Positions 1 through 14,692 of a stretch of DNA of 14,810 bases are shown here, one piece after another. Source of the DNA: Candidatus Bathyarchaeota archaeon (GTDB lineage Archaea > Thermoproteota > Bathyarchaeia > Bathyarchaeales > Bathycorpusculaceae); contig CAVTZU010000029.1 of NCBI GenBank assembly GCA_963739305.1, positions 1-14,810 of the forward strand, read 5' to 3'. Numbering within the stretch: the first letter of the stretch is position 1; each line of letters begins with the position of its first letter. The notes below the pieces were generated by a model. That model searched no databases, had not been told where the DNA came from, and saw only the letters and a list, made by a program, of their open reading frames with translations. A program made the translations under genes and the position numbers.

Positions 1-800
1 GGTGTTGAGTTGTTTATGACCCATTATGATTCGTACTGTTTCGGTGTTCTGTGTTCTGTGTAGTTGCTTGGTGCAATAGTAGTGTCTCAAGTCGTAGAGT
101 CGTATGTTGTGGATTGATGGGTCGTTGAGTTTCTTGGCTAGTTTGTTTCTGAATCGTCTGAAGTGTTCGCCGTATCTTTTGACGTTGCCTTTGAATAGTA
201 GGTCGTTTCCTTTCTGAGGTTGTGTTTGCGTATGTAGTCTTGGATTCTTCCCATTAGTTCGGGTGTGATGTTTGTGGTGGTCTTGGGTTGCATCCTTTGG
301 TTATTCGTGCGGTGATGGTGTTTGTTTCTGGGTGGATGTCTTTGACTTTGAGACCTTTCTCGCCGTAGTATTTCGATAGGTCTTAGTCCTGTTCGTCTGT
401 GATAGTCAATCAGTATTGAGAGTCTGCCTTTGGCTGATGCAATTAGCATTTGTACCTTTTCTTGTGTTGGTGGTTGGATGGTTGTTGGTTCGGGTGTGTA
501 GATGGGTTTTTCCCAGAATATTTGATTCAGTTTACAGTATGTTGCATAGCAGTCACATAGCTTAGATTTGTAGTTGTTTGTGATGGGTCTTCCGTTTGCT
601 TGTTTGTATCGGGCTATTGCTAATTCAACGGTTTTTGTGTCGTTCAAGCTCTGATCGTATTGCTAGTGCTTTCAGGGACTTCTCGTACATTCGGATTGTG
701 TTTGGACTTCTTCCTTTTCCTTCGAGGTGTAGTAGAAGCTTTTGTATACTTGGTAGTTGTTGGATGTATTGCGGGTGGGCGAGTAGCTCAGCACGGATTG
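1..800 (-). pseudogene. Tyrosine recombinase/site-specific integrase, multiply frameshifted, 3' end outside the window
   Basis: Manual translation across frames gives LLLHLEGKGRSPNTIRMYEKSLKAL (N-terminal core-binding-like), TGLRPIEI (box I Arg), GLKVKDIHPETNTITARITKG (catalytic Lys region), and LFKGNVKRYGEHFRRFRNKLAKKLNDPSIHNIRLYDLRHYYCT...IIMGHKQLNT (box II and GH motif). At least 4 frameshifts are needed. The track ORF 138..647 covers only part of it. The start is uncertain; the frame stays open antisense through the tRNA 5' half to about 810. Confidence 0.9.
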
Positions 801-908
801 GGTCTTTGCCTCAATGCTTCAAGTGGCGGGTGCTTTTGTAAGGGGAGTCACGGATAGAGCACCAGCCTCCTAAGTTGGGGGTCGTGGGTTCAAATCCCAC
901 CTCGCCCG
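777..908 (+). tRNA. tRNA-Arg(CCT) with a 57-nt insertion in the D-loop
   Basis: Acceptor GGGCGAG(777-783)/CTCGCCC(901-907); D-stem GCTC(786-789)/GAGC(857-860); anticodon stem CCAGC/GTTGG with loop CT-CCT-AA (anticodon 869-871); T-arm GTGGG-TTCAAAT-CCCAC; discriminator G908; no encoded CCA. Removing one CACGGAT copy plus the intervening DNA restores a normal D-loop AGCACGGATA. Confidence 0.88.
792..855 (+). repeat. 7-bp direct repeat CACGGAT (792-798, 849-855) bounding the D-loop insert
   Basis: Read directly from the sequence; offset 57 nt. Confidence 0.9.
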
Positions 909-953
909 CTACAGACGAACCCAGCCCGGTCTTATGAAATTTCTTTTAATGGT

Positions 954-1114
954 TCATTTCCGTTTTCGGAAGGCTTTGTTGTCTTCATAGTCGCAGACAA
1001 ATTCGAATCCTGCTTCTATGGGCTGGGTGACTTCCTGTTCTGAGTGGGCTATTTTCGCCGTGTAGTCACATCATCTTTGAGGTTGACGAGTTGGGTGTAG
1101 ACTAGGGTGTTGCT
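954..1114 (-). pseudogene. C-terminal remnant of a tyrosine integrase (includes the catalytic Tyr region)
   Basis: Translates SNTLVYTQLVNLKDD / (frameshift near 1070) DYTAKIAHSEQEVTQPIEAGFEFVCDYEDNKAFRKRK*, resembling the C-terminal tail of archaeal tRNA-adjacent integrases. It ends 45 bp from the tRNA 3' end, convergent with it. Confidence 0.75.
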
Positions 1115-1304
1115 AAGATCATACTCAAGTATTTCGCGCACGGGGCTGCCTTGCGTTTCTTGCTGAAGAACGAAGGATACCGTTGCATGTCCTCGTATAT
1201 TGGTCTGGGCATACGTCCTGAATAGATGTCCGGGTGGCCTTCAGGGTTTACAAGCGGATACTTTACTTTGATGTTTCTTATTGTCATTCGGTAGACTTGG
1301 TAGA

Positions 1305-1314
1305 CGCGCGCGCG
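1305..1314. repeat. (CG)5 run
   Basis: CGCGCGCGCG, downstream of the terminator of gene 1396-1809. Confidence 0.9.
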
Positions 1315-1343
1315 AAATGATGCTTGCTTGCCCAACTTCACCC

Positions 1344-1368
1344 GAAAGAAAAAAGGTTAAAAAAAGGG
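1344..1368 (-). terminator. Poly-T terminator of gene 1396-1809
   Basis: Minus strand reads CCCTTTTTTTAACCTTTTTTCTTTC about 30 nt after the stop codon. Confidence 0.6.
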
Positions 1369-1395
1369 ATTAGAAAATATGGAGCGTTTTAGATT

Positions 1396-1809
1396 CTATG
1401 ATATTATGAATGGTTCGTTTATGGTTGCCTTAAAGTCCCAAGGACCTGCTCCTGACAAAGTATATGTTATCCTTGCTTTCCCAAAAGCATCAGTTGTAAC
1501 AGGTGAACTAGGAATCTCAGTCCAAGCTCCGCCATTGATTGAAACCCAGAAGTGAACGCTTAATCCCTTAACTGAAATGACACTTGGTCCAACTACCGTA
1601 GCGTTGAGGTCAATCACATTAAGTGTGTCATCGTCTTCCTTAGCAGACAGCGTAAGAGTATATTTCGGGGCAGTTACGTGTATGATGTTGCTTGTAAGCA
1701 TGTAGTCAGCATACGCTGCCGTAGCCGCACATACAATAGCCAGCATTACAATAGATGCCAGAAGCATTTTCCTTCTCTTCGTTGAAACAAGACTTTTCAT
1801 ATTCATCAT
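1396..1809 (-). CDS. Secreted or surface protein, probable Ig-like beta-sandwich
   Basis: Basic N-terminus (KRRK), hydrophobic helix and AYA cleavage-like site; beta-strand-rich mature part with VTTDAFGKARITY; SD GGGGTGA directly upstream. Confidence 0.75.
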   Translation of the reverse strand: MMNMKSLVSTKRRKMLLASIVMLAIVCAATAAYADYMLTSNIIHVTAPKYTLTLSAKEDDDTLNVIDLNATVVGPSVISVKGLSVHFWVSINGGAWTEIPSSPVTTDAFGKARITYTLSGAGPWDFKATINEPFIIS

Positions 1810-1857
1810 ATCACCCCCTATGTTTATTCATTTTAAGGATGACCGTCATATTCGTGA

Positions 1858-1866
1858 CGCGCGCGC
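1858..1866. repeat. Alternating CG run (9 nt)
   Basis: CGCGCGCGC, about 50 bp upstream of the start of gene 1396-1809. Confidence 0.9.
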
Positions 1867-1988
1867 ACAAAACGAGAGAGATTAATGCGTTTCTCCACAT
1901 GGCGTATACGCCTAGCCTTGACCGCCTGTGCGCTATTTAATTGGCACGCTCTTAACTCTTATGATACTTTCTTCTATGCCCGCTTTCT

Positions 1989-1996
1989 GCGCGCGC
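1989..1996. repeat. (GC)4 run
   Basis: GCGCGCGC in an intergenic region. Confidence 0.9.
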
Positions 1997-2057
1997 TATC
2001 AATCAAAGTTCCTTCTTTCAACAGAGTAAACTCGTTCAACAGGACTCCGACCATCAT
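1997..2057 (-). pseudogene. Possible N-terminal stub of an amidohydrolase-family gene
   Basis: MMVGVLLNEFTLLKEGTLID, then the (GC)4 run. GGAG precedes TTG at 2039. LLKxGTLID resembles the first beta strands of metal-dependent amidohydrolases. Confidence 0.4.
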
Positions 2058-2068
2058 TTCAATTAATT

Positions 2069-2082
2069 AAAGCGCGCGCTTT
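2069..2082. repeat. 14-bp palindrome AAAGCGCGCGCTTT
   Basis: Perfect palindrome with a (GC)4 core at 2072-2079. Confidence 0.9.
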
Positions 2083-2166
2083 GGGTTTGGGATAAAACTT
2101 TGCTCCGAACCAAAACAAAGAGAAAAAAAGGGGTTTGCAGGATGTGACGAAGGCGGAACTGACACA

Positions 2167-2367
2167 TTATTCGATTTTCTTTTTTGCCTTTTCTAAGGCT
2201 TCCTTGGTTTTTTCGACGCCCTTTTCGCCGGCTTCTTTGACTTTTCCACCAGCCGTCTTGGCTCCTTGGACTCCTTTTTCACCTGCTGTTTTTGCTGCAT
2301 CAGCAGCCCTTTTTGCTTCCTCTTCAGCCTTTTTCTTCGCTTTATTCAAGAATGACATATTCATCAC
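2167..2367 (-). CDS. Small Lys/Ala/Glu-rich repeat protein (LEA/general-stress-like)
   Basis: Internal repeats AKTAG and AGEKGV; highly hydrophilic; poly-T tract downstream (about 2113-2133 on the minus strand). Confidence 0.75.
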   Translation of the reverse strand: MMNMSFLNKAKKKAEEEAKRAADAAKTAGEKGVQGAKTAGGKVKEAGEKGVEKTKEALEKAKKKIE

Positions 2368-2455
2368 TCTAACAAGACATCTTCTTTTTGCCTAAAAACA
2401 TATTGGACAAACACGCGAGACCTAGAAAAAGCTAAGGCGGCGCCGCTAAGGGTGC

Positions 2456-4858
2456 TCACTTGAGAGTCCAAACGAGTGCGACTAGACGAACTGTAATGTT
2501 TGTTTTGGTTGGTGTGACTGAGATGTTTTCTAGGTCTTCGGTTAATGGGTTAGTTTTCGTCTCCAACGCGTTCACTTCCGACTGAAATTGCGTCTCAAGA
2601 TTGGCCCTTTCCTGCTGCAAAGTCTTCAAGTTTGCTTCAGCGCCTTCTTTGTCACGTGATTCCTTCATGCTGCGGCCTATTTCGCGAGCGGTTCTTGTGG
2701 CGCCGCTACCGGTCTTCCTTCCGAGGAAGGAGCCAAGGAGCGTTGCTCCAAACGACACGGCAGCTTGATATTTCTCTCCCTTTGCTTGACTTTCCTGTTC
2801 TTGTAACACAGTCGTTGCACGCCTGATCCGTTCGTCGAGTCTTGCGAAGTCTGAACTGTATTTTTGTCTCAGCTTTTCGACCTGTTGGTCGCGCTGTTCC
2901 CTTCCTTTCTGTTGAAGGCGTATTCTGAAATCCCGTTCTGTCTCATCTGGTCCTGAGAATTCGTTGAGATTGCCGCTTTTCATCAATTGCAGTTTTTGGG
3001 TTCTGAACAGCCAATTCGAGAAGTCTTTTGACCAAAAGCCATAATTTTTTGGTATAGCGGCAGCTGACGGCAGATCAGCAAATGAGACTCCCTGACTTGG
3101 TGCGTTGCTCAGTTCTGAGACCTTTATGTTGGCCTCTCTTGAATTGTCCCAATTGACAGCTATAGGGTCATTTGTAATGGAAGTGAGGAATACCAACTCT
3201 TTTGTAGTGTCGATTCGTGCTTTTGTGTCGACAAACCGCACTTGCGCTGTCCCAAGAATAGCGGGTTGATAGATCTCTTCCGTCTTCATCAATTGGTTCT
3301 GGCCACTCGAGACAAAATATTGTGGCACATCGGGAGGCACGACGGGTCTTTGAGGGATTCCTTTGAGGCTTGGCGACAGGGCTGTTGGGGTTGAGGGAGT
3401 CGATAGTGCTGCCGTTTGTGTTTGAGAGGCTGTCGTTTGTTGGGTTCTTAGTGGGTCAACGAGAATTCTGATCTGATCTCTTGTTAAGGGGCCACGAAGG
3501 TAGGACATTGCCCATCTGGTTTCGAATACTACCGGATTGTCCTCATGGACATCGTTCATAAGAAATACTCGATTCCCAAGAGCAGAGAGAGTCTGGTCCA
3601 TGCTCTGACGATCAAACTGTCCTTGACTTGTGAGGGCAGCGCTTTCGAGTCCGTCTAGTACATGTGCCTTGTCTTGTTCAGTCTGCAGCCGTCCGAGAAA
3701 CCACGTACCAGCATTCGAAAGGGCTTTGTAGTCTAGATCGACTGGATTTTGCGTCGCAAGTACGATTCCAAGACCGAAGGCACGTGCCTGCTTCAGGAGC
3801 GTCAGCAAAGGCGTCTTCGACGGTGGATTGGCCAAAGGTGGAAGGTAACCGAAAACTTCATCGATGTAAACAATCGAGCGCAGACTTGCAGTTCCAGACT
3901 GTGTGCGCATCCAGCCCACTATCTGATTGAGTAATAGAGATACGAAGAACATCCGTTGCGTATCGTTCAGGTGTGCAATGTAGAATATTGATACTTTTGG
4001 TTTGCCGCTCGTGGAATGGAGCAGTTTGTTGACGTCAAGTGGATCTCCTTCGAGCCAGAGGCTGAACCCTGGAGCTGCAAGAAGATTGTTCAGTTGCATA
4101 GCTAGTTCAAATCGGTTCTTGGATGGATAGAATGATTCTATGTCAAGGACCCCGATGCGACTCATAGGCGGAGACTGAATGAGTTGAATGAGTCCACCGA
4201 TGTCTAAGTCTTCGCCACGCTGCCAGGTTGCAGCAAGTATGGTGGAGATCAGTATATGTTCCCTTGAACGGATTGGGTCAGCTTCTATCCCCAGCAATCC
4301 GAGAAGGCTTGTGACCGTGGTTGTGATTCTCTCTTGGAAGAGTTCATTGTCTTCCCTGATCTCAGGTGTGGGAGCCGCAAAAGATTTCAGAATCGAGATT
4401 GGGAGACCCGCGTTGCTGCCTGGGGTGTAGATGGCAAAGTCTGCAGAATCACGAAGGCGTTGGATGCGCTTGCCGTCCTCCCCCCACTTTAGAAGACCGT
4501 TTTTCCATAGGTCTGCCTGCTGATTGGCGTATTCCTGCGTTGAGACCCCCTTCTTGAGGGCTTCTTCTTCATTTATCCAAGGAAGAAAATCTTGACTTCT
4601 CAATTCGGGAAATGTCAGCAGAAGATTTGTGATGTCTCCTTTTGGATCGATCACGATGGCTGGAATACCATCGATTGCCGCTTCCTCAATGAGAGACATG
4701 CACAGACCCGTCTTCCCGCTACCAGTCATACCGATGCAAACCGCATGTGTGACCAAATCCCTCGAATCATACAATAACAGGTCTTCCAATCCTGATTTGT
4801 TACGAACATCATAGAGACGCCCAAGGTAGAAGACTCCTAGCTTCTCAAAATCCTGCAT
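2456..4858 (-). CDS. HerA/FtsK-superfamily P-loop ATPase (DUF87/DUF853-like) with C-terminal coiled coil
   Basis: Walker A GMTGSGKT, IVIDPKGD, Walker B YIDEVFG, QARAFG (Arg finger region), LATQNP; 800 aa; SD AGGAG upstream. Confidence 0.9.
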   Translation of the reverse strand: MQDFEKLGVFYLGRLYDVRNKSGLEDLLLYDSRDLVTHAVCIGMTGSGKTGLCMSLIEEAAIDGIPAIVIDPKGDITNLLLTFPELRSQDFLPWINEEEALKKGVSTQEYANQQADLWKNGLLKWGEDGKRIQRLRDSADFAIYTPGSNAGLPISILKSFAAPTPEIREDNELFQERITTTVTSLLGLLGIEADPIRSREHILISTILAATWQRGEDLDIGGLIQLIQSPPMSRIGVLDIESFYPSKNRFELAMQLNNLLAAPGFSLWLEGDPLDVNKLLHSTSGKPKVSIFYIAHLNDTQRMFFVSLLLNQIVGWMRTQSGTASLRSIVYIDEVFGYLPPLANPPSKTPLLTLLKQARAFGLGIVLATQNPVDLDYKALSNAGTWFLGRLQTEQDKAHVLDGLESAALTSQGQFDRQSMDQTLSALGNRVFLMNDVHEDNPVVFETRWAMSYLRGPLTRDQIRILVDPLRTQQTTASQTQTAALSTPSTPTALSPSLKGIPQRPVVPPDVPQYFVSSGQNQLMKTEEIYQPAILGTAQVRFVDTKARIDTTKELVFLTSITNDPIAVNWDNSREANIKVSELSNAPSQGVSFADLPSAAAIPKNYGFWSKDFSNWLFRTQKLQLMKSGNLNEFSGPDETERDFRIRLQQKGREQRDQQVEKLRQKYSSDFARLDERIRRATTVLQEQESQAKGEKYQAAVSFGATLLGSFLGRKTGSGATRTAREIGRSMKESRDKEGAEANLKTLQQERANLETQFQSEVNALETKTNPLTEDLENISVTPTKTNITVRLVALVWTLK

Positions 4859-4936
4859 GATTTACACTCCTTGTTAGGCTGATAGTCCGTATCATCCAGG
4901 CTCTATTTTATCGTTTTTGTTCCGTCCAAGATCAAC

Positions 4937-4950
4937 CGCGTGCGCACGCG
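4937..4950. repeat. 14-bp alternating purine/pyrimidine palindrome CGCGTGCGCACGCG
   Basis: Perfect palindrome between divergent genes. Confidence 0.85.
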
Positions 4951-5104
4951 TTTGAGTGAGAGCCGTTGTAAAGGCATGGAAATCGCATGCCCTAGGCATT
5001 AAGAGAGTGAATTGGCACTAAATTAGGACTTGATCACAATCTTGCACTTATGCGACGAAAACCTTTTCTATCAACTCAACAACAACTGGTAGCAGGTGAT
5101 ATCT

Positions 5105-5290
5105 TTGCCAGAGCCAAAGTTTGAATGGTTCAAAGACAAAGCAGGAAAATTCAGGTTCCATCTGCTAGCAGCTAACGGAGAGATAATTGCAGTAAGCGAA
5201 GGCTACTCCTCAAAGGAAGCATGCGTCAACGGCATCGAATCGGTAAAGAAGAACGCTCCGATTGCCAAAATAGTAGAAACCAAACAATAG
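5105..5290 (+). CDS. DUF1508 (YegP/HVO_2922-like) protein
   Basis: FEWFKDKAGKFRFHLLAANGEIIAVSEGYSSKEACVNGIESVKKNAP signature. SD AGGTGA at 5094-5099 favours a TTG start at 5105. Poly-T terminator at about 5318-5333. Confidence 0.9.
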   Translation: MPEPKFEWFKDKAGKFRFHLLAANGEIIAVSEGYSSKEACVNGIESVKKNAPIAKIVETKQ

Positions 5291-5538
5291 CATCTTTTAG
5301 CAACAAGACAAGATAACCCCTTCTTTTTCTTTTAGCGTGCCCGACAAGGCTTACAAATGAAACTGGACAAAAGCCGTTTCGGGTGATTCGTTGGCAAAAG
5401 AAGATGAAATGTTAGAAAACTGAAGAGCGCGCACCTCGTTGTTTACTAGTATTTCACGATAACTTCAGGTCTTGTTCAGAAAAGATAAGAGCGGGCGTGC
5501 AAACTGAGGAGTTCAGAGTGTTCCAAAGAGGTTCAAGT

Positions 5539-6276
5539 ATGAAAGTTTTGGCTTTCAACGCAAGTCCGCTTATGGAAAAGGGAAACACTGCCCTCCTGTT
5601 AGAGCCCTTTTTGGAGGGGACGAGGGAAGAGGGTTGCGACGTAGAACTATTCTATACGTGCAGGCTTCACGTGAATCCGTGTTTAGGTGACAGAGGCTGC
5701 TGGACGAAAACACCGGGCAGGTGCGTTCAGAACGATGACGTGAAGATGCTTCTGCCGAAAATACAAGAAGCCGACATCATTGTTTTCGCGTCGCCAGTGT
5801 ACGTTGACGGAATGCCTGGAACCTTGAAGAACCTCATTGACCGCCTCATCCCCATCGTCGAGCCTTATTTTGTCATGCAAGACAGGCACTGCAGGCATCC
5901 TTTGCGCAAGCCTCACAAACACTCCAAAGTAGTTCTGATTTCAAACTGCGGTTTCTGGGAGATGGACAACTTCGAACCGCTCGTCACGCATATGCAGGCG
6001 ATATGCAAGAACACGTGTTGGGAGTTTGCTGGTGCTCTCTTGCGTCCTCACGGTGAAGCACTAGGCTACATGGTCAGAAAGGGGATCCCAGTTCAAGACG
6101 TACTTGATGCAGCGAAGAACGCTGGAAAAGAACTCGTTCGAACCGGAAAAATAAGCGAAGAAAACATGAAAATCGTAAGCCGAAACCTGGTCCCGCTAGA
6201 GACGTACGTAGAAATGACGAATAAAGGTTTCAAACAAGCCCTCGACAGACTCGGTCAAACCAAAGGCTCTCACTGA
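5539..6276 (+). CDS. Flavodoxin-family / iron-sulfur flavoprotein (NADPH-dependent FMN reductase fold)
   Basis: MKVLAFNASP..GNT, CLGDRGCW...C, ADIIVFASPVY...LKNLIDR; SD GAGGT before ATG 5539. Confidence 0.88.
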   Translation: MKVLAFNASPLMEKGNTALLLEPFLEGTREEGCDVELFYTCRLHVNPCLGDRGCWTKTPGRCVQNDDVKMLLPKIQEADIIVFASPVYVDGMPGTLKNLIDRLIPIVEPYFVMQDRHCRHPLRKPHKHSKVVLISNCGFWEMDNFEPLVTHMQAICKNTCWEFAGALLRPHGEALGYMVRKGIPVQDVLDAAKNAGKELVRTGKISEENMKIVSRNLVPLETYVEMTNKGFKQALDRLGQTKGSH

Positions 6277-6309
6277 GCTGATCTTCCCAGGTTCAACCTT
6301 ATCTGGTCG

Positions 6310-7152
6310 TTAGACTTGGCATTTGGGGCAGACGAACACTTTTCCTCCCCCAAGGCTCAGCTCTTCTATAGGCGTCCCGCAAACTGGGCAGTCCTTTTTT
6401 CTCATGTTTGGCCCCATCGCTGGAACGTACCCGCCTTGCTTCTGATACAGGTCCAGAAATTGGTTTTTTCCGTTCAACCGGAGTCTCTCTCGAAGGACAA
6501 GTTTAACAGCGTTGTAAAGGGCTTTTTGCTCATTCAAGTTCAACTCGGAGGCTTTCCGCTTTGGGTGCAGCTTAGCCCTGTATATTACGTCTTGAAAGGC
6601 GCTGTTGCTCAGCCCAACTAATACAGCATCTTTGCCAACGAGTACAGATTTGAGCGCTCTGTTGTTGTCTGCTAAGAGTTTCGAAAACCGCTCGAACGTG
6701 AAATTCTCATCCACAGGTGAGAGCATCTCAGGATTGAAATCCCGCTTGAACACGTACGAGCTCGCTAGTTCATCGTCCTTCAACACTCTCAGCCCTCCCA
6801 TGCTAGTGAACCTCACCGTCAACACGGTTTTGTCGCAAAAATCAATCCTTAAATGGTATTTTTCTGGAACCGTCGTTTCGCATGAGTGATAGAAAATCTC
6901 GCCTCCGTACTCAGGGGCTAGAATGATGTTCATTTTGCCATCGAGTTTCACGAGTATGGCGTTCCCTCTCGAGGTGACAGACTCAACTTCTCGGTTTACA
7001 AGCTGATCAAAAGCTTTGGTGTCCTTGTTTATGAACCCAGTTTTCTGCAATCTTTCGCAGTCTCGAAGATGATAACTTCCGATGCGTTTGCCACGGAGTT
7101 CTTTGTTCATCTGTTCTGCGAGGATCCTTGCTTCCGGAAGCTCGATGCTCAT
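6310..7152 (-). CDS. Fpg/Nei-family DNA glycosylase-like protein (H2TH plus C4 zinc finger)
   Basis: N-terminal MSIELPEA, H2TH-like LKSVLVG...GLSNSAFQDVIYRAKLHP, C-terminal CPVC...CPKC. Confidence 0.85.
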   Translation of the reverse strand: MSIELPEARILAEQMNKELRGKRIGSYHLRDCERLQKTGFINKDTKAFDQLVNREVESVTSRGNAILVKLDGKMNIILAPEYGGEIFYHSCETTVPEKYHLRIDFCDKTVLTVRFTSMGGLRVLKDDELASSYVFKRDFNPEMLSPVDENFTFERFSKLLADNNRALKSVLVGKDAVLVGLSNSAFQDVIYRAKLHPKRKASELNLNEQKALYNAVKLVLRERLRLNGKNQFLDLYQKQGGYVPAMGPNMRKKDCPVCGTPIEELSLGGGKVFVCPKCQV

Positions 7153-7489
7153 CTGAAGTCTCCAATACACCCATTTTTGGTAAACCACTCTTAAAATCGT
7201 TTGTGCATTGATCGATGAGAGAAAGTTTAAGAACTCTCAGAATTTATTGTTGCTCGGTTTGTCTTGCAAATTCATACTCAGCCACGAGCACAACTAGCCC
7301 GTTCCGTGCCGAAAGAAATATTTTTCTGAACTGACCACATCAAGTCCTTCAGGATAGTGGAATCAGCAGACGGCAAGGTGTATGAGACTTGAAATCGAGT
7401 TACCCTTTACTGGTGCGGAAAATCCGGCAACAAACCGTTCTGCGGCAGCAGTCATTACCCCGAATGACTTAAAGAGGTGAAGACTTCAA

Positions 7490-7813
7490 ATGAGTAAAAT
7501 CAACCTTGAATATAATCTGGACAAAGTACTGAAGTCGAAAGACAAATCGATCGTTCTCTTCTACGCTTCTTGGTGTCCCTTTTCTCAGAGGTTCTTGCCC
7601 GTGTTCAAAAAATACTCCCGAGCCAAGCCTGATAGTTGCTTGGAAGTCGTCACCGATGACAAAGCGAGTCTTTGTGAAAAATACAACGTGGACGTAGTCC
7701 CCACGGTGCTTATCTTCGAGAAAGGCAAAGTCACGAAGCGGTTGGACGGAGCGGCAGGCATCGGACTGACAGAGAAACAACTGCTCGATTTCGCCAAAAA
7801 ATCCGAACGTTAA
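7490..7813 (+). CDS. Thioredoxin-family protein (CxxS active site)
   Basis: VLFYASWCPFS, cis-Pro motif VVPTVLIFEKG; SD GAGGTGA. Confidence 0.88.
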   Translation: MSKINLEYNLDKVLKSKDKSIVLFYASWCPFSQRFLPVFKKYSRAKPDSCLEVVTDDKASLCEKYNVDVVPTVLIFEKGKVTKRLDGAAGIGLTEKQLLDFAKKSER

Positions 7814-7937
7814 ATCGCTGCATTTCAAGCAGACAGGACGAGCTTTCGTCAGCTGCTAGATCTGATCTAGGATCGGATCTTCAAAGTTATGGCGCCAATG
7901 GGACACGTTGAGACGCGGCACTAAAAGCTGATCGAGG

Positions 7938-8690
7938 TCACATTCTCAGCACTCCAGAAAGCACGTAGGTCAATGCGAATATCACCGCGAATCCAACCGC
8001 GCAGGCGCCAACCGTGAGTGCTGGAGGGTTCTTGGCGTGAGCTTCTGGCAAGAGGTCACTTGCCCCCAAATAAAGAAAGCCACCGGCAAAAAATGGCAGA
8101 AGGAGAACTATGTAGAACTGCTGAACCTGGATGAAGAGCGCCACAACGGCTCCAAAAACCGGCGCAACCGCATCCAAGAACAACATTCGCAAGGAATTTT
8201 TCAGGGAGTTTCCGGAATTCAACATCACGGTAACAGTGCTAAGCCCATCCGTGAAGTCGTGACATATCACTGCAATCGCTATGATGACTCCTACGTGGAT
8301 GTCGGCTTGGAAACCAAACCCGATGGCTAGACCGTCGATGAAACTATGGACCGAAAGCTCGGAGGTCGCAAAAAGGCCGCCTACGGGGTGCTTGACTTCA
8401 ACGTATTCGCCATCCTTGCTGAAAACATGAGCGCTGATTAGCCGAGAGATCACGTAGAGGAAAAGGAACCCGACGACTGTCAAGGCCATAACGTCTTCAA
8501 GAAGTACGTTCACTGCCGTGGCAAGCTTGAATGTCTCAGGCAGCAGATCCAACAGAGAAGTCGTGATCAATATCCCAGCTGCGAAGGCGCCCAGAACTCC
8601 AATGTTCTTCCTTCGTCTTGCTGCAAATGTCCCTCCGAGCAAAGTAGAAAAGCAAGTAACGACAGCCAGCAAGAGCGCGTAAAGGTTCAT
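7938..8690 (-). CDS. ZIP-family divalent metal transporter
   Basis: Multiple TM helices with HSFIDGLAIG, HDFTDG and FLYLGASDLLPEAH motifs. Start is ATG 8690 or GTG 8711. Confidence 0.9.
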   Translation of the reverse strand: MNLYALLLAVVTCFSTLLGGTFAARRRKNIGVLGAFAAGILITTSLLDLLPETFKLATAVNVLLEDVMALTVVGFLFLYVISRLISAHVFSKDGEYVEVKHPVGGLFATSELSVHSFIDGLAIGFGFQADIHVGVIIAIAVICHDFTDGLSTVTVMLNSGNSLKNSLRMLFLDAVAPVFGAVVALFIQVQQFYIVLLLPFFAGGFLYLGASDLLPEAHAKNPPALTVGACAVGFAVIFALTYVLSGVLRM

Positions 8691-8759
8691 ATCGCTATCC
8701 TTTCTTGACACAAGCTACTTAATCATTTTCGTAAAGGAGCCATATCTTGAATGTTGTCT

Positions 8760-9524
8760 TCATCTACTAGTCTTTTTCGCGCGCGCGGGAACTTTTCTTC
8801 CTGTCAACAGTTTCATCCTGGTTTCTCTGACGGCAATTCTGGGAAGCACGTCTTCATTTTCCTCCAGATATCTTTCGACCCTCTGCCTGCTGTGCTTGAT
8901 TAGATCCCTTAGCAGCCATGATATCGCCTTCGTACTCAGAATGTTTCGCTCGGACTTTAATCTGTCAATGTTCATGAGAGCCACGTCTGTCAGCCTTGAA
9001 TCTTCCGAGTCTCTCACTGGTTTGATAAGCAAAACCAGACTCGCGCGTCTCTTGTTAACGTTGCTATCCGAAGCAAGCTTGGTCAACAACCTCTTCCATT
9101 CTTTCCAGTTGCCCAAAACCTCAGTTGCAGTGAATTTCGATTGGCACAACGAATCAACTTCGGCCCACCCGTGCAATCTATTCAGCCAAACGTCAATGTA
9201 CTTCGGTTCAACATGCTTCCTTAGTTTGGGCATTGACTCAAGCAACTCGCCAGCCATCGAAATCTCGTTAATCGATTCTCCCTGATACAGAGAGCTTAAC
9301 AATTCAATGTACTGAGACATCGAAAGATCAGAATGCCTTTTTACCCATTCTTTTACGATTCTTTTCTCGGTATCTGCTCCGAGCACGTAGCATACCTTGT
9401 CAGTTCCAATATACCTCAAGAGCTTCTCTTTCTCATCCCGAGACATATCGCGCGCTTTTGCCTTCGCTTCGGACACGAGATCAAAGCGATATTTGTTCAA
9501 AACCTTTCGATTCAACTGTCCCAA
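8760..9524 (-). CDS. DNA alkylation repair protein (AlkD-like, HEAT-like repeats)
   Basis: GWAEVDSLC, SDSNVNKRRASLV, KAISWLLRDLIK, RIAVRETRMKL motifs. Exact start uncertain. Confidence 0.82.
   Translation of the reverse strand: MGQLNRKVLNKYRFDLVSEAKAKARDMSRDEKEKLLRYIGTDKVCYVLGADTEKRIVKEWVKRHSDLSMSQYIELLSSLYQGESINEISMAGELLESMPKLRKHVEPKYIDVWLNRLHGWAEVDSLCQSKFTATEVLGNWKEWKRLLTKLASDSNVNKRRASLVLLIKPVRDSEDSRLTDVALMNIDRLKSERNILSTKAISWLLRDLIKHSRQRVERYLEENEDVLPRIAVRETRMKLLTGRKVPARAKKTSR
8778..8787. repeat. (CG)5 run in the last codons of the AlkD-like gene
   Basis: TTTTT-CGCGCGCGCG-GGAA; encodes the PARAK tail. Confidence 0.9.
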
Positions 9525-9566
9525 TCCTGGTTCATAGCAACGTCTTCTTCAGGGGCAGGGGCTTGC

Positions 9567-9998
9567 TTATTCTTGCGGAGGCCTAGTGTAGACTTCGATA
9601 ACGTGGTTATCAGGATCACAGAAAGAAGCTGCATAGTATCCTGGCACGAATTCTGGATGCTCTTCAGGAGGGAACAAAGGTTCAAACCCATTTTGCTTCA
9701 TATTTTTAGCCACCGTGACCACGCTCTTCTTATCTGGAACAAAGATGGCTAAATGCTCTGTAACCACAAACTCCTCTCCAGTAGGAGCAGCACACTTGAC
9801 CCTCACATCTCTCTGCTCGCCTAGCCACACTTGAAAATTCTGATTCGAGAATCCGAGAACCCCTTTCGAGTCAACAATGACTCTGCAGCCGAGAGTTTTC
9901 AACAAGATCTCATAGAACCTTCTCGCCTTTCTGAGGTTTGTTACTTCGATTCCAACATGACCAATTGTGGCTCGTTCTTCTTTTTTCTCAGGCACCAT
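9567..9998 (-). CDS. VOC/glyoxalase family protein
   Basis: IGHVGIEVTNLRKARRFY, EHLAIFV, GYYAASFCDPDNHVIEV. Confidence 0.9.
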   Translation of the reverse strand: MVPEKKEERATIGHVGIEVTNLRKARRFYEILLKTLGCRVIVDSKGVLGFSNQNFQVWLGEQRDVRVKCAAPTGEEFVVTEHLAIFVPDKKSVVTVAKNMKQNGFEPLFPPEEHPEFVPGYYAASFCDPDNHVIEVYTRPPQE

Positions 9999-10068
9999 GC
10001 GTTACCACGTGAACTTTAAGGGATGCTTTGGTTTCATAAGCTTTGCCTACCGCTTGAGGGTAACTCCT

Positions 10069-10076
10069 GCGCGCGC
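10069..10076. repeat. (GC)4 run
   Basis: Intergenic, between the divergent VOC and MPG genes. Confidence 0.9.
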
Positions 10077-10180
10077 TTCTTAAGAGCACGTGACTGCTCC
10101 ATCATCATGACAGACCGCCTAACTATGCCGACAGCGGCTTGTCGCAGGGTTTATTTCGAATGGGTTCCCACTATCCATCC

Positions 10181-10786
10181 ATGATTCTGAAAAGAAGCTT
10201 CTACGAGCGAAACACTTTGACAGTGGCAAAGGATCTCCTTGGAAAACTCTTGGTCCATGAAACCCCGCTAGGTATGACTGCAGGCAAGATCGTTGAGACC
10301 GAAGCATACATGGGTCCCGAGGACAAAGCTTCACATGCCTTCGGAAATCTCCGTACGAAACGGACCGAAGCTCAATTCGGACCAAAAGGACACGCCTATA
10401 TCTATTTTGTCTATGGAATGCACTATTGTTTCAACGTTACCAGCGGAATAATCCCCGGGAAACCCGACGCAATCTTGGTGAGAGCACTTGAGCCAGTTTT
10501 GGGGGTGGACATAATGATTAAACGCAGGGATATCTCTGACCGAAATACGACTAACTTGACAAATGGACCCGGCAAGCTCTGCAAGGCAATGGGTATGTCA
10601 ACAAAACAGAATGGAGCCGACCTATGTGCTCCACCGCTTCACATCGACGGAGGCCAAAGGATACGAAAAATCGAGATCGTTCAAACAACGCGTATTCACG
10701 TGGATTATGCAGGTGAATGGAAATACGCACCTTGGAGATTTTTCGTAAAGAACAACCTGTACGTTTCGAGACCAACTGGAAAATAG
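10181..10786 (+). CDS. mpg: 3-methyladenine DNA glycosylase, AAG/MPG family
   Basis: VAKDLLGKLLV, IVETEAYMGPEDKASH, YIYFVYGMHYCFNV, ILVRALEP, NGPGKLC, PWRF. ATG 10181 lies about 25 nt after TTTATTT. Confidence 0.93.
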   Translation: MILKRSFYERNTLTVAKDLLGKLLVHETPLGMTAGKIVETEAYMGPEDKASHAFGNLRTKRTEAQFGPKGHAYIYFVYGMHYCFNVTSGIIPGKPDAILVRALEPVLGVDIMIKRRDISDRNTTNLTNGPGKLCKAMGMSTKQNGADLCAPPLHIDGGQRIRKIEIVQTTRIHVDYAGEWKYAPWRFFVKNNLYVSRPTGK

Positions 10787-10857
10787 GTCGCGCCCGTCAG
10801 AAATCGTGTGCGTTAGGTACAAATAGGAACACTGTCGCTTAGCATTCTGTGGAGAAT

Positions 10858-11208
10858 ATGTCAATCTGGAAAACAGACAAATGGAACTATAGAATAACCA
10901 GTAAGCGATCCATTCTGATCAGGAACAAGAGCATAGATCAACACAAAGTTGGTGCAGTGGATCTGACAACGAAGCTCCCTATCGTGTTCGAAGTCTCCAA
11001 GGATGTTTCAATGCAGGCAATCAAAGTAGGCAAAAAATATCTCGTGACGGTCAGAATCTACACCGCCAAATCGACGGAGAACGTGAGCGCAGACTATATT
11101 GAACTCTTTCAGGTGCTCGACGTGGATCAACCGGCAGAAAACTTTCTGTCAGCAACGTGCTGTTATCCAAACCTTATCCGATTTGAACTCGAGGACATAG
11201 AAACATAG
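10858..11208 (+). CDS. Hypothetical protein
   Basis: Open frame of about 116 aa filling the gap between mpg and tag; GGAG before ATG 10858; no family recognised. Confidence 0.65.
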   Translation: MSIWKTDKWNYRITSKRSILIRNKSIDQHKVGAVDLTTKLPIVFEVSKDVSMQAIKVGKKYLVTVRIYTAKSTENVSADYIELFQVLDVDQPAENFLSATCCYPNLIRFELEDIET

Positions 11209-11257
11209 TCAATAGTTTCCTGATAATTGAAGGAAATCAGGATTCTGCAGAACGAAA

Positions 11258-11869
11258 CTATCGGATCGTTTTGTTCTTGGCGCCGCTTTTGCTGGTCATT
11301 TTCCTTATCTGTTCATAGCGGAAGCAGTGAACTAAGTGATCATTCACTAAACCAGCACCTTGCATGAAGGCGTAGCAGATGGTTGGTCCTACGAACTTGA
11401 AGCCTCTTTCCTTCAATTTTTTGCTCATCACCCTGCTTTCTGAAGAGTCAGCTGGAAGATCTGCAAAGGTTTTAAGAGCATTGTCGATTGTTTTTCCTCG
11501 AACAAACTTCCAGACAAAGGCATCAAAAGAACCGAAATTATTCTGAATCTCCAGGAATTTGCGCGCGTTATTCACAGTCGCCTGTATTTTCGCCCTGTTA
11601 CGAATGACTTCAGGATTGTTCATAATACGGTTGATGTCTTTCTCGGTGTACTTCACTATCTTTTGCGGGTCGAAATCGCTGAATGCTTTCTTCATTGCTT
11701 TTCTTCTGTCAAGGATGAGTTTCCACGTTAACCCTGCCTGAAAACCTTCGAGTACTAATAACTCGAACAATCGCTTGTCATCATGAAGAGGAGTACCCCA
11801 TTCGTCGTCATGATAGGCGATGAAAAGCGGGTCAGTGGTTTTCCAGCACCTTACAAGATGCTTTTTCAT
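11258..11869 (-). CDS. tag: DNA-3-methyladenine glycosylase I
   Basis: RCW...YHDDEWG, LFELLVLEGFQAGLTW, IRNRAKI, LKERGFKFVGPTICYAFMQGAGLVNDHLVHC. Confidence 0.95.
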   Translation of the reverse strand: MKKHLVRCWKTTDPLFIAYHDDEWGTPLHDDKRLFELLVLEGFQAGLTWKLILDRRKAMKKAFSDFDPQKIVKYTEKDINRIMNNPEVIRNRAKIQATVNNARKFLEIQNNFGSFDAFVWKFVRGKTIDNALKTFADLPADSSESRVMSKKLKERGFKFVGPTICYAFMQGAGLVNDHLVHCFRYEQIRKMTSKSGAKNKTIR

Positions 11870-12063
11870 GACGAACAGTATCCTATGTCAACGTTCTTAA
11901 GTTTGTCCATAAAGTATTTTTCCCCGTTTAGACCTTACGAAAAACGTCACGTAAGATGGTGTGCCGTTTTGCGGAGGATCTCAATAAGGCGCGCAGACCG
12001 GTTTCTGCAGATTCTTCCTTTGTGGTCACCATTTCATGCGTGGCGATTATAGTTGGTCAAGGT

Positions 12064-12367
12064 CTAGAATGTTTGCAGTTTCAACTTGCTCAAATAGTGC
12101 TCTTTCAGCTTTGCTAGCTTCGGCGCGATGACCAGAGTGCAGTATGCTTGTTCTGGGTGCCGTTTGAAGTAGTCTTTGTGATAGTCTTCTGCAGGGTAAA
12201 ACACTCTCAACGGTTCAAGCTGCGTCACGATCGGTCTGTCCCACGCGTTTGCCTCACTCATCTCTTTGATCACTTGCACAGCTACCGCTTTCTGTTGATC
12301 ATCGCGGTAAAATATGACTGAACGGTACTGGGTTCCGACATCAGGACCCTGACGGTTCAACGTGGTT
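12064..12367 (-). pseudogene. msrA: Peptide methionine sulfoxide reductase MsrA, C-terminal fragment only
   Basis: TTLNRQGPDVGTQYRSVIFY, FYPAEDYHKDYF, YCTLVIAPK. The N-terminal part with GCFW is absent, and homology stops at the CG run. Confidence 0.9.
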
Positions 12368-12380
12368 CGCGCGCGCGCGC
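12368..12380. repeat. Alternating CG run (13 nt) at the msrA breakpoint
   Basis: CGCGCGCGCGCGC, the longest run in the window. Confidence 0.92.
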
Positions 12381-12419
12381 TACTATTGACCAGTCTGTTG
12401 GACAATGAGGATGAGATGA

Positions 12420-12971
12420 TTGGACCTGGATCAGGCTCTAAAGGGTCGCAGAAGCATACGAAGCTACGTTGAAAAGGGAGTGCCAATACAGCTCGTCAGA
12501 CAGGTCATTGAGGCTGGCACGTTTGCACCTTCAGCTAAGAACGGCCAGCAATGGCGGTTCACCGTAGTTGGTGGAAAAACAAAAGCAGATCTGACTGCAG
12601 TTTTCCGAGCTCAGTTGGAGAACGTCTCACAGAAAATTGGCAGAGAAAGCATGGGATCTTCTTTCTCTTCCTGTGTGATAATGGAACAAGCACCCATCGT
12701 CATAATGGTTTGGAACGCCGGAGAGAGAGGATGGGAAACCGAAACCCAGAGCGTCGCCGCCGCCATTCAAAACATGCTGCTCAAGGCACATTCTCTTGGG
12801 TTGGGAACTTTATGGATCGGCGACATCTTCTACGCGACTGAAACCCTCACACGTCACCTCAACAAACCTTGGAGGCTCGCGGCAGCCGTGGCCTTAGGAT
12901 GGCCAGCCTCGGCTCCAGAACCGCGTCCAAGGAAATCTGTTGATGAAGTCACCGAATTCTTCATCGACTAA
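12420..12971 (+). CDS. Nitroreductase family protein
   Basis: RRSIRSY, APSAKNGQQWRF, AAAIQNMLLKAHSLGLGTLWIG, VALGWP. Confidence 0.92.
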   Translation: MDLDQALKGRRSIRSYVEKGVPIQLVRQVIEAGTFAPSAKNGQQWRFTVVGGKTKADLTAVFRAQLENVSQKIGRESMGSSFSSCVIMEQAPIVIMVWNAGERGWETETQSVAAAIQNMLLKAHSLGLGTLWIGDIFYATETLTRHLNKPWRLAAAVALGWPASAPEPRPRKSVDEVTEFFID

Positions 12972-13167
12972 CAAGAAAAGCTTCAGAAAGCCTTGGCAGT
13001 ACAAAAAAAGAGGGTGAAGCGTCGTCATTTATTTATGAGTGGTGCTAAACCTTTTTATCTGAGAACGATATGTATTGGTCACGTCACAATAATTCATGTA
13101 ATTAACGAAGCTTCTGAAAGCTTTTAGAAATGCATGCACAATTTTTGTGGCAGGAGATACATAGTAT

Positions 13168-14358
13168 ATGCAAAATATGCAAAATAATACCTTCAAAGAC
13201 TTGTCACTAAGCAGTGAGGTCATGAAAGGTATCGAAGAGCTTGGATTCACAGATCTATTTCCAATTCAGGCTCAAGCGATAACGCCGTTGCTTCAAGGCA
13301 AGGACGTTATCGGTCAAGCACAAACAGGAACAGGCAAAACCGCCGCCTTCGGTATACCGATGATTGAGCGGGTAAACCCTGAGGTCAAAGAAATTCAAGG
13401 TTTGATCCTGGTTCCGACTCGAGAACTTGCAGTGCAAGTTGCTGATCACGTACGGCGACTCGCAAAGTACGCGGGAGTGAGGGTTCTGCCGGTTTACGGC
13501 GGAGAACCCATAGAAAGACAAATTCACGCCCTGAGAGGCTGCATTCAGATCATCGTCGGAACGCCAGGCCGAGTCATCGACCTGATTGAAAGGCGAATAC
13601 TTGATCTGGGGTTTGTGGGAGTTGTCGTTCTAGATGAAGCAGATCGCATGCTTGATATGGGCTTCATAGAAGACATCGAGTACATACTGCGAAAAGTGCC
13701 CAGAAATCGGCAGACCAGTCTTTTCTCAGCTACGATCGACGCGCAAGTGATGAGAATCTGCAATAGGTACATGAAGAATCCCGAAAAAATACTCGTAAGC
13801 AAGGATGAAATAGCCCTCACTCAGATGAACCAGTACTACATGGTGGTAAACCCGTACGAGAAGTTTGAAGTTCTCTGCAGCATACTGAACGAGAACCACA
13901 TAGAACGTGCTATAATATTCTGTAAAACCCGAACGGACACGGGCATTCTGGCTGAAAAGTTGAAAGACAAAGGCTATGATGCAAAACCGCTCCATGCTGG
14001 GCTAACTCAACCACAACGAGACTGCGTCACCGACCTGTTCAGAAGAGGAAGGCTGAAGTTCCTAATCGCGACTGACGTCGCTGCCAGAGGATTAGATATT
14101 CAAGGAATCACCCACATAATAAACTTCGACGTACCAATGGAGGCGTTGGTTTACTTCCACCGAATCGGAAGAACGGCCAGGATGGGCAGCGAAGGCACGG
14201 CTATAACCCTCGTCAGTTACGGTGAAATGTCGGATTTCAACAGCATAAAGGCTATGACCAAGACAAGAATCCAGGAAATGCAAGAACCAGAGTCGAGCGG
14301 TGAGGGAAGCCAAAGAAGCCCAGTGTCCTATATTGCTGCACCAAAACCTCGATGGTAA
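13168..14358 (+). CDS. DEAD-box RNA helicase
   Basis: Q motif, AQTGTGKT, PTRELA, TPGR, DEAD, SAT, ATDVAARGLD, HRIGRTAR. Confidence 0.96.
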   Translation: MQNMQNNTFKDLSLSSEVMKGIEELGFTDLFPIQAQAITPLLQGKDVIGQAQTGTGKTAAFGIPMIERVNPEVKEIQGLILVPTRELAVQVADHVRRLAKYAGVRVLPVYGGEPIERQIHALRGCIQIIVGTPGRVIDLIERRILDLGFVGVVVLDEADRMLDMGFIEDIEYILRKVPRNRQTSLFSATIDAQVMRICNRYMKNPEKILVSKDEIALTQMNQYYMVVNPYEKFEVLCSILNENHIERAIIFCKTRTDTGILAEKLKDKGYDAKPLHAGLTQPQRDCVTDLFRRGRLKFLIATDVAARGLDIQGITHIINFDVPMEALVYFHRIGRTARMGSEGTAITLVSYGEMSDFNSIKAMTKTRIQEMQEPESSGEGSQRSPVSYIAAPKPRW

Positions 14359-14449
14359 ACGAATAGACTTAAATTAGCCTTGATAAATATAAAAACCGTG
14401 CAAGAACAACCCACTTTTGCACTCAACAGAATAGGAGTTGAAGTAGTAA

Positions 14450-14587: not shown

Positions 14588-14692
14588 GCTCACAAGCTAA
14601 CATCTTTACTTCGTTCCACCAACTTTTTCTTTTTTTACCACTATTAATAATAAGAAGAAATCACATTCTTCATTGAGGTTAAGACCAAGAAA

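Follow-up and report, generated by a model that had tools for sequence, protein, structure and literature searches.

GCGCGCGC, an iterated intergenic octamer of some Bathyarchaeia genomes, and its association with joints between unrelated DNA

Among the closest described counterparts of the octamer GCGCGCGC, which we analyzed in a contig of a Candidatus Bathyarchaeota archaeon and in related genomes, is HIP1 (GCGATCGC) of cyanobacteria. According to PMC4390886 and PMC5861425, HIP1 is likewise an exact 8-bp G+C-rich palindrome and the most over-represented octamer of its genomes, is lineage-specific with exceptions, and has palindromic extensions of its core. Unlike the octamer, HIP1 shows enrichment and conserved positions both inside and outside coding DNA, and it is linked to the methyltransferases DmtA and DmtC (PMC4390886, PMC5861425). 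The octamer, in contrast, is mostly intergenic, its positions are not conserved, no C5 methyltransferase was found in three genomes rich in it, and it occurs at rearrangement joints. The stretch from which the analysis started, hereafter the window, is the entire 14,810-nucleotide contig CAVTZU010000029.1 (C29) of the genome bin G000 (GCA_963739305.1; 2.32 Mb, 36 contigs), in which an initial annotation had noted alternating CG runs at gene boundaries. G001 is a complete single-contig chromosome of the same genus, other G numbers are further Bathyarchaeia genomes, and L numbers are metagenome loci.

Repetitive extragenic palindromes (REPs) are imperfect hairpins of 20-40 nt that carry a conserved flanking tetranucleotide and co-occur with a RAYT gene. 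Like the octamer, REP and REPIN sequences are extragenic, palindromic, present in hundreds of copies and common just after the 3' ends of genes. The unit described here, however, measures 8-12 nt, which is too short for a stable hairpin, and no Y1_Tnp match was obtained in the 31 genomes searched. The attC sites of integrons are similar to the octamer in that short conserved cores bound unrelated gene units in variable regions, but the octamer has no imperfect inverted repeats around the core, forms no array beside an integrase, is not found at empty positions and is lacking in the partners. Excision footprints of Tc1/mariner-IS630 elements consist of TA on both sides of a short palindromic remnant. 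In the case of the octamer, in contrast, no IS630-type transposase was found in G000, no interrupted genes with both halves were found, and the joints lead into unrelated DNA.

Mitochondrial GC clusters were linked to deletions and recombination in the older literature. They are 30-60 nt long with a family structure, whereas the octamer, in archaeal chromosomes, is an invariant unit of 8 nt between random flanks. The clusters of yeast and other organisms share with it the features of G+C-rich spacer palindromes and rapid turnover, and they spread horizontally (PMC4478555). Filler DNA of end joining (non-homologous end joining, NHEJ; microhomology-mediated end joining, MMEJ; archaeal primase repair) is like the octamer in that extra nucleotides that belong to neither partner appear at joints and fragments are captured. 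Known additions of this kind are short and variable, whereas the octamer is constant, and Ku does not track it. A constant 8-nt palindrome is not known to have been described as a junction addition. Further, no description of the octamer was found in the searchable literature, a scope that excludes subscription journals and supplements. In its behavior, the octamer is most like a cross between HIP1, with which it shares the exact repeated unit, and the filler DNA of joints. It lacks the features that define HIP1 (enrichment in coding DNA and a methyltransferase), REP/RAYT systems, integrons and IS630 footprints.

The octamer, its flanks and its distribution

GCGCGCGC is the most abundant 8-mer of G000, in which 359 copies were counted against 26.3 expected under a first-order Markov model. 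The corresponding numbers in G001 were 464 and 28.4, and the 12-mer TAGCGCGCGCTA occurred there 19 times against 0.06 expected. G000 contains 351 alternating CG runs of at least 8 nt, compared with 17-75 for the other alternating dinucleotides. Among the words that are statistically missing from bacterial genomes, long alternating GC words are the most frequent, with (GC)6 as the commonest significantly absent one (PMC8034619). Against this background, a lineage with GCGCGCGC as its most frequent octamer stands out and calls for an explanation.

Among 348 flanked runs, 175 were exact 8-mers starting with G, 96 were 9-mers, 23 were 10-mers starting with C and 24 were 8-mers starting with C. The ratio of 175:96:23 suggests that the unit is a single octamer, which is lengthened by a chance flanking C or G. 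GCGCGC outside runs of at least 8 nt was not in excess in G000 (397 against 453 expected, by arithmetic), which leaves no separate class of hexamers and rules out simple slippage. The length distribution, which peaks at 8, and the fixed G-start phase (175 versus 24 exact 8-mers) likewise led us to reject microsatellite slippage. The base at +1 after the run was T in 57-80% of cases in G000 and in 71% in G001. TA made up 37% of the flanks even at least 40 nt from open reading frames (ORFs), though it is the rarest dinucleotide (odds 0.58), and it was present on both sides of 12/75, 14/56 and 3/43 exact octamers (29/174 overall). Beyond these two bases, the flanks were random and of background composition. 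The preferred context of the octamer is TAGCGCGCGCTA. As an alternating CG tract the octamer is a potential Z-DNA former, a property that the initial annotation had pointed out, but the exact 8-nt unit, the G-start phase and the preference for TA flanks together show a definition that is sequence-specific and not purely structural.

In the window, all seven CG runs reported in the initial annotation were found, each of which contains GCGCGCGC (Table 1). The nine overlapping matches to GCGCGCGC are beyond chance, because 200 dinucleotide-preserving shuffles of the window gave a mean of 0.13 and none of them reached nine; similarly, CGCGCGCG occurred 8 times against 0.14 expected. The three longest runs have TTCGCGCGCGCG in common, as had been noted, although in one of them it lies on the reverse strand. 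The placement at gene boundaries also held when the runs were compared with the ORF map and Pfam matches (ORFs here and below are crude longest-ORF calls of at least 80 aa, which yield 85% coding): five runs are intergenic, one lies in the last codons of a gene and one at a truncation point. The window has the highest run density of any G000 contig. Genome-wide coding and intergenic densities predict 3.2-3.8 runs where seven are present (Poisson P 0.045-0.09), and the window is not special within its genome.

The shorter or variant sites that the initial annotation had added to the series were confirmed in part. Those at 5427-32 and 11989-94 are indeed GCGCGC, but this class is not enriched genome-wide outside longer runs. 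The sites at 2437-46 (GCGGCGCCGC) and 4937-50 are GC palindromes of other kinds and not octamers, and at 10789-93, where the sequence reads tcgcgcc, there is no CG run of at least 6 nt. The palindrome cgcgtgcgcacgcg at 4937-50 equals (CG)7 with two transitions at mirror-image positions, so that the palindrome is kept; it is possibly a decayed run, of uncertain membership in the series. One degenerate site in the locus L060 (GTGCGCAC) is mirror-symmetric in the same way, unlike others.

Outside the window, all 10 other genomes of the genus hold 29-464 copies of GCGCGCGC, including one single-contig chromosome, whereas the counts were 0-14 in eight sister genera and 53 in a genome from another family. 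Octamer counts were 601 in G107 and 298 in G121, compared with 1 in G116 and 9 in G181. In a sample of 201 Bathyarchaeia genomes, which we scored by the 12-mer TAGCGCGCGCTA (the reversed control gave 0-3 copies), at least 10 copies were present in 10 genomes from three families. Octamer-rich lineages are thus patchy across the class, and two other families are rich too. The motif is found throughout the genome and the lineage and does not belong to a local system beside a tRNA-integrase locus, as the initial annotation had proposed.

A constant palindromic 8-mer at chimeric-looking joints is also what a ligated linker gives, and G000 is a metagenome bin with a contamination figure of 7.8% and strain-duplicate contigs. 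About 100 kb of it are contig-end overlaps at 95-99% identity, a pattern that indicates co-assembled strains; window positions 7394-14810 are themselves present again as G000 contig C35:1-7417 at 99% identity. An artefact of assembly, binning or library preparation is nevertheless extremely improbable. The feature is present in all ten same-genus genomes, one of them a single-contig chromosome, while the sister genera are nearly free of it. Sites are identical in loci of different assemblies (L002, L053 and L054) and present in mutated versions in a relative at 97% identity. Further, contigs of other public runs, including another study, span four runs of the window (1305 in X6 record 25, 1858 and 1989 in X6 record 26, and 8778, with no difference, in X4 record 14), which rules out, for these four, the assembly chimeras that the initial annotation had named as a concern. 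The public runs that hold the window include some from peat and wetland.

Sites relative to genes, gene order and DNA joints

A genome-wide count, split into coding and intergenic DNA as the initial annotation had recommended, placed 262 of the 351 runs of G000 in intergenic DNA, which makes up 14.9% of the genome. Similarly, 60 of 71 clusters in the first 400 kb of G001 and 15 of 15 in a 20-kb locus of G121, a member of a distant family, were intergenic. The excess of intergenic density was about 17-fold, with 75-85% of copies in 15% of the DNA, and the interiors of core ORFs contained 0.013-0.015 sites per kb. That the octamer is a lineage-wide, highly iterated intergenic palindrome is secure. 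The densities in tandem, divergent and convergent gaps were 0.75, 0.63 and 0.96 per kb, respectively, with a peak at 0-30 nt downstream of stop codons and a wide elevation at 40-100 nt upstream of start codons. A role as terminator, promoter or insulator is not favored, because the density is alike in all gap types, there is no flanking T-run and conserved divergent gaps are nearly empty (no site in 11.3 kb of G001 and two in 10.1 kb of G000).

To relate the sites to gene order, G001 and G000 were compared using the same ORF calling (1230 reciprocal best hits, median identity 74%). Strain-duplicate contigs mislabel some G000 genes as accessory, and the figures based on G001 are free of that problem. 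Runs equally common in core syntenic regions would have spoken against the initial annotation; instead, sites were 3-5 times rarer in gaps of conserved adjacency than at breaks of synteny or next to accessory genes. Between core genes whose adjacency is conserved, the density was 0.19 per kb in G001 (8 sites in 42.4 kb) and 0.16 per kb in G000 (6 in 37.8 kb), compared with 0.85 (29 in 34.0 kb; p 4e-5) and 0.53 per kb (16 in 30.0 kb; p 0.009) where the adjacency of core genes is broken. The densities in G001 and G000 rose further to 0.93 and 0.74 per kb in core-accessory gaps and to 1.21 and 0.95 per kb in accessory-accessory gaps. All gaps other than the conserved ones contained 321 sites in 308.7 kb of G001 and 225 in 276.5 kb of G000 (p 5e-10 and 4e-7 against conserved), and this contrast holds in every length stratum and when divergent gaps are taken by themselves. 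Sites per 50 kb of G001 were over-dispersed (variance 35, mean 8.9). At the loci of the ZIP gene, the neighbors differ between species, and the sequences are too diverged for breakpoint mapping.

We then asked what lies at the sites themselves. Among the ends of intragenomic repeats (at least 150 nt long with at least 70% identity), a run was present within -13 to +5 nt in 41 of 1999 cases against 7.4 expected from the local background, and in 37 of 1160 against 4.1 (P<1e-17). The end of a truncated homologue (at least 50% identity, at least 30 aa missing) was found no more than 5 nt from 12 of 712 sites but from only 2 of 1526 random non-core positions (p 4.6e-5); when unique events were counted, the number was 10 of 710 (p 3.4e-4). 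At all 12 of these junctions, nucleotide homology to the intact orthologue stops 0-3 nt from the run, the DNA on the far side is unrelated, and the intact orthologue has no CG motif at the break. In the window, the run at 12368 lies where msrA is truncated (Table 1). Four relatives carry full-length msrA of about 175-190 aa with the GCFWC site, and the N-terminal half of the gene was not found anywhere in G000. This run and its strain-duplicate copy on C35 are the only two 13-nt runs of G000.

Further, runs flank eight segments of 205-560 nt at both ends. Five of these segments are in G000, where a single region on strain-duplicate contigs accounts for two, and three are in G001, where two belong to the same family. 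The segments are fragments of ordinary genes and carry no terminal inverted repeats. The sources of C7:31527-31842 (C7:19384-19683) and of C17:14851-15245 (C30:2960-3339) are parts of longer sequences that have no run at either point, and in two other pairs the partner has decayed runs. Clean insertions of 9 and 13 nt that hold the octamer were found in alignable non-coding sequence, and none of 733 sites splits a gene of which both halves are present. The truncation junctions, repeat ends, bounded fragments and clean insertions together indicate that the octamer is part of neither partner and lies where the two are joined.

In our estimate there is an even chance that the octamer was written, or carried on an end, when DNA was joined without homology, that it survives in dispensable DNA only and that it then decays. 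In this reading, the octamer marks non-homologous joints; it is not a crossover between two pre-existing sites, and the writing mechanism is what we infer from these joints. The octamer would then appear as a fixed sequence between otherwise unrelated DNA, that is, at the ends of inserted or duplicated fragments, at gene-truncating deletions, at synteny breaks and in accessory, gene-poor DNA. Its self-complementary G+C tract would let any two ends pair, and octamers would decay by point mutation after joining. Copies would be almost all intergenic because only joints in dispensable DNA survive.

The initial annotation had read the same placement differently, with (CG)n as the crossover core of a site-specific, integron-like cassette system served by tyrosine recombinases, a fragment of which lies at 138-647. 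The sites do lie at unit boundaries and synteny breaks, and Phage_integrase matched 15 times in G000, with 12 matches above the Pfam cut-off. Window positions 62-244 are 72-73% identical at the DNA level to two G000 integrase genes, a tRNA-like gene lies at 841-908, and a few repeats (C18 versus C8) have decayed runs in common at either end of the two copies. However, a crossover between two sites is contradicted by the partner sequences, since neither the orthologues at the 12 clean junctions nor the sources of the two doubly bounded fragments have a run. Clean small indel blocks carried sites at both ends in only 0/65 and 1/54 cases, and their empty sites carried a run in 3/65 and 2/54, numbers in which many blocks may be spurious ORFs. 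The indels of the window itself, one of 2.6 kb with a HerA-like gene and one at 10849-11208, are not bounded by octamers. The random flanks beyond TA leave no recombinase-binding arms. Integrase matches numbered 1, 2 and 3 in the octamer-rich genomes G115, G113 and G107 but 14 each in the octamer-poor G149, G160 and G202, and across the 201 genomes the counts of tyrosine-recombinase matches, which are not copy numbers and come partly from kin that are not independent, do not track the 12-mer. The cassette model is thus largely refuted, and we consider it very unlikely.

Several observations weigh against writing at joints as well. A first, looser test of truncated homologues was not significant (13/419 versus 24/1257, p 0.18; 12/314 versus 30/942, p 0.59), and the stricter criteria used above, including the limit of 5 nt, were set after this result had been seen. 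Within coding sequence, the octamer is a same-length replacement (at least 17 cases) or a 9-nt in-frame insertion, and several of the replacements differ from the orthologue at multiple octamer positions, which needs no break. The indel blocks and window indels described above, seldom flanked by sites, count against this reading too. The number of sites per 50 kb of G001 follows the intergenic fraction (rho 0.70) better than the accessory fraction (rho 0.49), and the depletion in conserved gaps could reflect stronger constraint as a confounder. Strain duplicates in G000 at 95-99% identity keep their sites: 48 of 55 run records are identical, the differences are mostly single transitions, and 4 mismatches in 442 run positions compare with a background of about 2%. 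Finally, none of the enzyme families tested follows the motif: of the 10 genomes with at least 10 copies of the 12-mer, just 3 have Ku, and 42 Ku-positive genomes hold 0-4 copies.

Turnover, rival explanations and candidate agents

Among 614 gaps conserved between G001 and G000, one had a site in both genomes, six had a site in G001 only and three in G000 only. One-off transition variants of the octamer were enriched in intergenic DNA. In nine locus pairs other than the G000 duplicates, 18 mismatches were found in 140 run positions (13%) against a background of about 5%, an excess driven by one lineage pair. Hypermutability of CpG was rejected as inconsistent, because this excess contrasts with the 4/442 of the G000 duplicates. 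Five sites are degenerate in L060 versus one in the L002 lineage, a comparison of two lineages per site that may reflect either gain or loss. Neither of two window sites compared is kept in the 85%-identical metagenome locus L042: the site at 8778 reads CGCGCATGCA there, with equal length and three substitutions, and the octamer at 10069 is missing, with a 7-nt gap in the alignment.

Some of these patterns are expected from a HIP1-like, sequence-specific process that acts on intact DNA, for example biased repair, conversion linked to methylation, or selection for a site of protein binding, a nucleoid site or an insulator. The octamer would then accumulate where constraint is weakest, and the link to joints would be a by-product of the location of such DNA. 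The motif is genome-wide, lineage-specific and an exact palindrome with a palindromic extension, as is HIP1 (PMC4390886). The same-length replacements with multiple substitutions in coding sequence and at 8778 versus L042, the correlation with the intergenic fraction and the stability of sites between strains fit such a process, and the asymmetric loss in L060 looks as if a maintaining activity had been lost. In contrast, the roughly 17-fold intergenic excess sets the octamer apart from HIP1, whose enrichment and conservation extend to coding regions (PMC5861425), and positions are not conserved, with one site shared among the 614 gaps. Such a process gives no reason to expect runs 0-3 nt from truncation points, or runs at either end of copied fragments when the sources have none, and the conserved divergent gaps, which contain promoters too, are nearly empty. 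The methylation that the HIP1 comparison in the initial annotation would call for found no candidate, as C5 methyltransferase (PF00145) had no match in G000, G001 or G107, whereas the octamer-poor G116 and G181 had matches. Further, Vsr was not found over the cut-off in 31 genomes, and a drive by m5C plus Vsr was rejected on these two grounds. N4/N6 methyltransferases are present in most genomes, though not in G107, and do not discriminate rich from poor. Overall, we regard a HIP1-like process as rather unlikely.

The TA flanks suggest another explanation, namely that the octamer is a mobile nano-element or its scar: either the footprint or fused termini of a TA-targeting cut-and-paste element (TA-GCGC|GCGC-TA), or a minimal palindrome copied to new TA sites, as proposed for mitochondrial GC clusters. 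Apart from TA on both sides of some octamers and T at +1, the clean insertions of 9 and 13 nt and the 7-nt gap at 10069 versus L042 are in line with this explanation. The patchy distribution across the class is as for a horizontally moving agent, and the GC clusters of yeast mitochondria are mobile GC-rich palindromes in AT-rich spacers (PMC4478555). However, neither a DDE_3 (IS630-type) transposase nor TnpB was found in G000, and RAYT (Y1_Tnp, PF01797) was found in 0/31 genomes, with a control that matched in 6/14 known genomes. The run-bounded segments, which derive from ordinary genes, lack terminal inverted repeats. A footprint keeps both halves of a gene, whereas the 12 junctions lead to unrelated DNA and none of the 733 sites interrupts a gene with both halves kept. 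Moreover, strains at 95-99% identity show no presence/absence of 8-10 nt; their only length difference is a 1-nt indel, and the others are substitutions. A mobile nano-element thus appears distinctly improbable.

With regard to an agent that would write the octamer at joints, reverse transcriptase, protelomerase and Prim-Pol were not found in the five genomes tested. G000 contains a complete archaeal NHEJ operon (C32:50049-53873; L206:7049-10873) in the order PolDom (L206:7049-7939), Ku, ligase fused to phosphoesterase and DUF72. G016 has the operon in the same order, apart from a separate phosphoesterase, and 7 octamers. Ku was present in 8 of 11 genomes of the genus versus 1 of 20 others in a first, narrower sample, and in 45 of the 201 sampled Bathyarchaeia genomes. 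Ku is rare in archaea, and 45/201 is well above that expectation. Class-wide, Ku is neither necessary nor sufficient for the motif, and Ku-dependent NHEJ was rejected as the writer.

Archaeal primase (PriSL) and PolDom-type polymerases are capable of terminal transfer and microhomology annealing, and primase can join breaks (PMC12019639). This joining activity makes a Ku-independent route plausible, but it does not explain a fixed octamer. We tentatively propose, at less than even confidence, that an activity in at least three Bathyarchaeia families writes GCGCGCGC at every non-homologous joint, in break repair, deletion, fragment capture and foreign-gene acquisition alike, and that its agent would be a novel type of end-joining or DNA-insertion machinery, unrelated to Ku, integrases, RAYTs and known transposases.

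Neighboring features and significance

The coordinates of the runs and of the neighboring genes in the window are listed in Table 1.

Table 1. CG runs and other features of the window, in order of position.
Feature	Position	Strand	Remarks
CG run CGCGCGCGCG with octamer GCGCGCGC, 10 nt	1305-1314		gap 648-1395, downstream of Big_1-like ORF 1396-1809 (-)
CG run with octamer, 9 nt	1858-1866		divergent 325-nt gap 1810-2134, first of three sites
Exact octamer GCGCGCGC followed by TA, 8 nt	1989-1996		gap 1810-2134
Exact octamer, 8 nt	2072-2079		gap 1810-2134; abuts dispersed motif TTTGGGTTTGGGATAAAACTTT (2080-2113), upstream of ORF 2135-2395
14-nt palindrome cgcgtgcgcacgcg	4937-4950		about 80 nt upstream of HerA-like gene
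FMN reductase	5497-6276		Pfam
Fpg/Nei glycosylase	6310-7188		Pfam
AlkD-like	8760-9524	-	
CG run, 10 nt	8778-8787		last codons of AlkD-like gene, 16-27 nt before its stop
VOC/glyoxalase	9567-9998	-	
Exact octamer, 8 nt	10069-10076		divergent gap 9999-10138 between VOC and MPG
MPG	10139-10786	+	
Tag	11258-11869		
msrA C-terminal remnant	12064-12366	-	PMSR profile positions 77-152; C-terminal 100 codons kept
CG run, 13 nt	12368-12380		junction truncating msrA; homology of msrA remnant begins exactly there
Nitroreductase	12420-12971		

Genes for DNA damage and redox functions are concentrated at 5497-12971, where four different families of base-excision glycosylases lie within 6 kb. In relatives (G005 C10 and G009 C13), damage and redox genes are loosely near each other and reordered. 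The motif that abuts the run at 2072, (T)TTGGGTTTGGGATAAAACTTTACCCC(A)AAC, has inverted G/C-rich arms around ATAAAACTTTA and is dispersed: it was found at about 25 further places in G000 (for example, C10:113054-113075 and C8:11047-11068), in intergenic DNA, and in other genomes of the genus. Several of its copies adjoin CG runs with nothing in between, and the point of fusion within the motif varies. It could be a promoter/operator module or a small hairpin element.

At the left end of the window, the ORF at 138-647 has no Pfam match, and its DNA resembles the two integrase genes of G000 mentioned above. The tRNA-like sequence at 841-908 scored 29.6 bits against the Rfam threshold of 29 and was not called by ARAGORN; it may be an intron-bearing or otherwise atypical tRNA. 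Window positions 850-980 are 85-97% identical in several genomes of the genus. The joint 909->13041, seen in run X6 with only 25 letters on its shorter side, is too weak to make positions 909-13040 one island. At the right end (window 14415-14581), a short ORF (14451-14588, about 45 codons) for a zinc ribbon that has two CxxC pairs is present in many copies with 77-82% DNA identity in every genome of the genus searched, and the depth of public contigs there is very high.

Two segments of the window vary between relatives. The gene for an 800-aa DUF87/HerA-like ATPase (2413-5046) is a presence/absence polymorphism: forms without it, which join position ~2400 to ~5047, were found in three public runs, in one of them at greater depth than the gene itself, and also in G005 and L060. 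The ends of this 2.6-kb segment lie near the GC palindromes at 2437-46 and 4937-50. The 119-aa ORF at 10849-11208, for which Pfam gave no match, is missing in L042; this contig is collinear elsewhere but has about 42 nt in place of about 520 nt.

In practical terms, the motif offers a strong marker both for binning these genomes and for locating their variable regions. If a HIP1-like process underlies it, the octamer would be the first intergenic, methyltransferase-free example found, outside cyanobacteria, and it would bear on the 30-year-old question of the purpose of iterated palindromes. If instead the octamer is written at joints, it would be a natural tag of illegitimate recombination, and the sequences of an uncultured archaeal group would then directly show how gene gain, loss and rearrangement proceeded and at what rate. 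It would also point to a new end-joining or insertion enzyme with a fixed product and offer an entry to double-strand break repair in archaea without classical pathways. Under the proposal of one activity that writes GCGCGCGC at every non-homologous joint, these genomes would preserve several hundred past break-and-join events in a record that can be read and that decays slowly.

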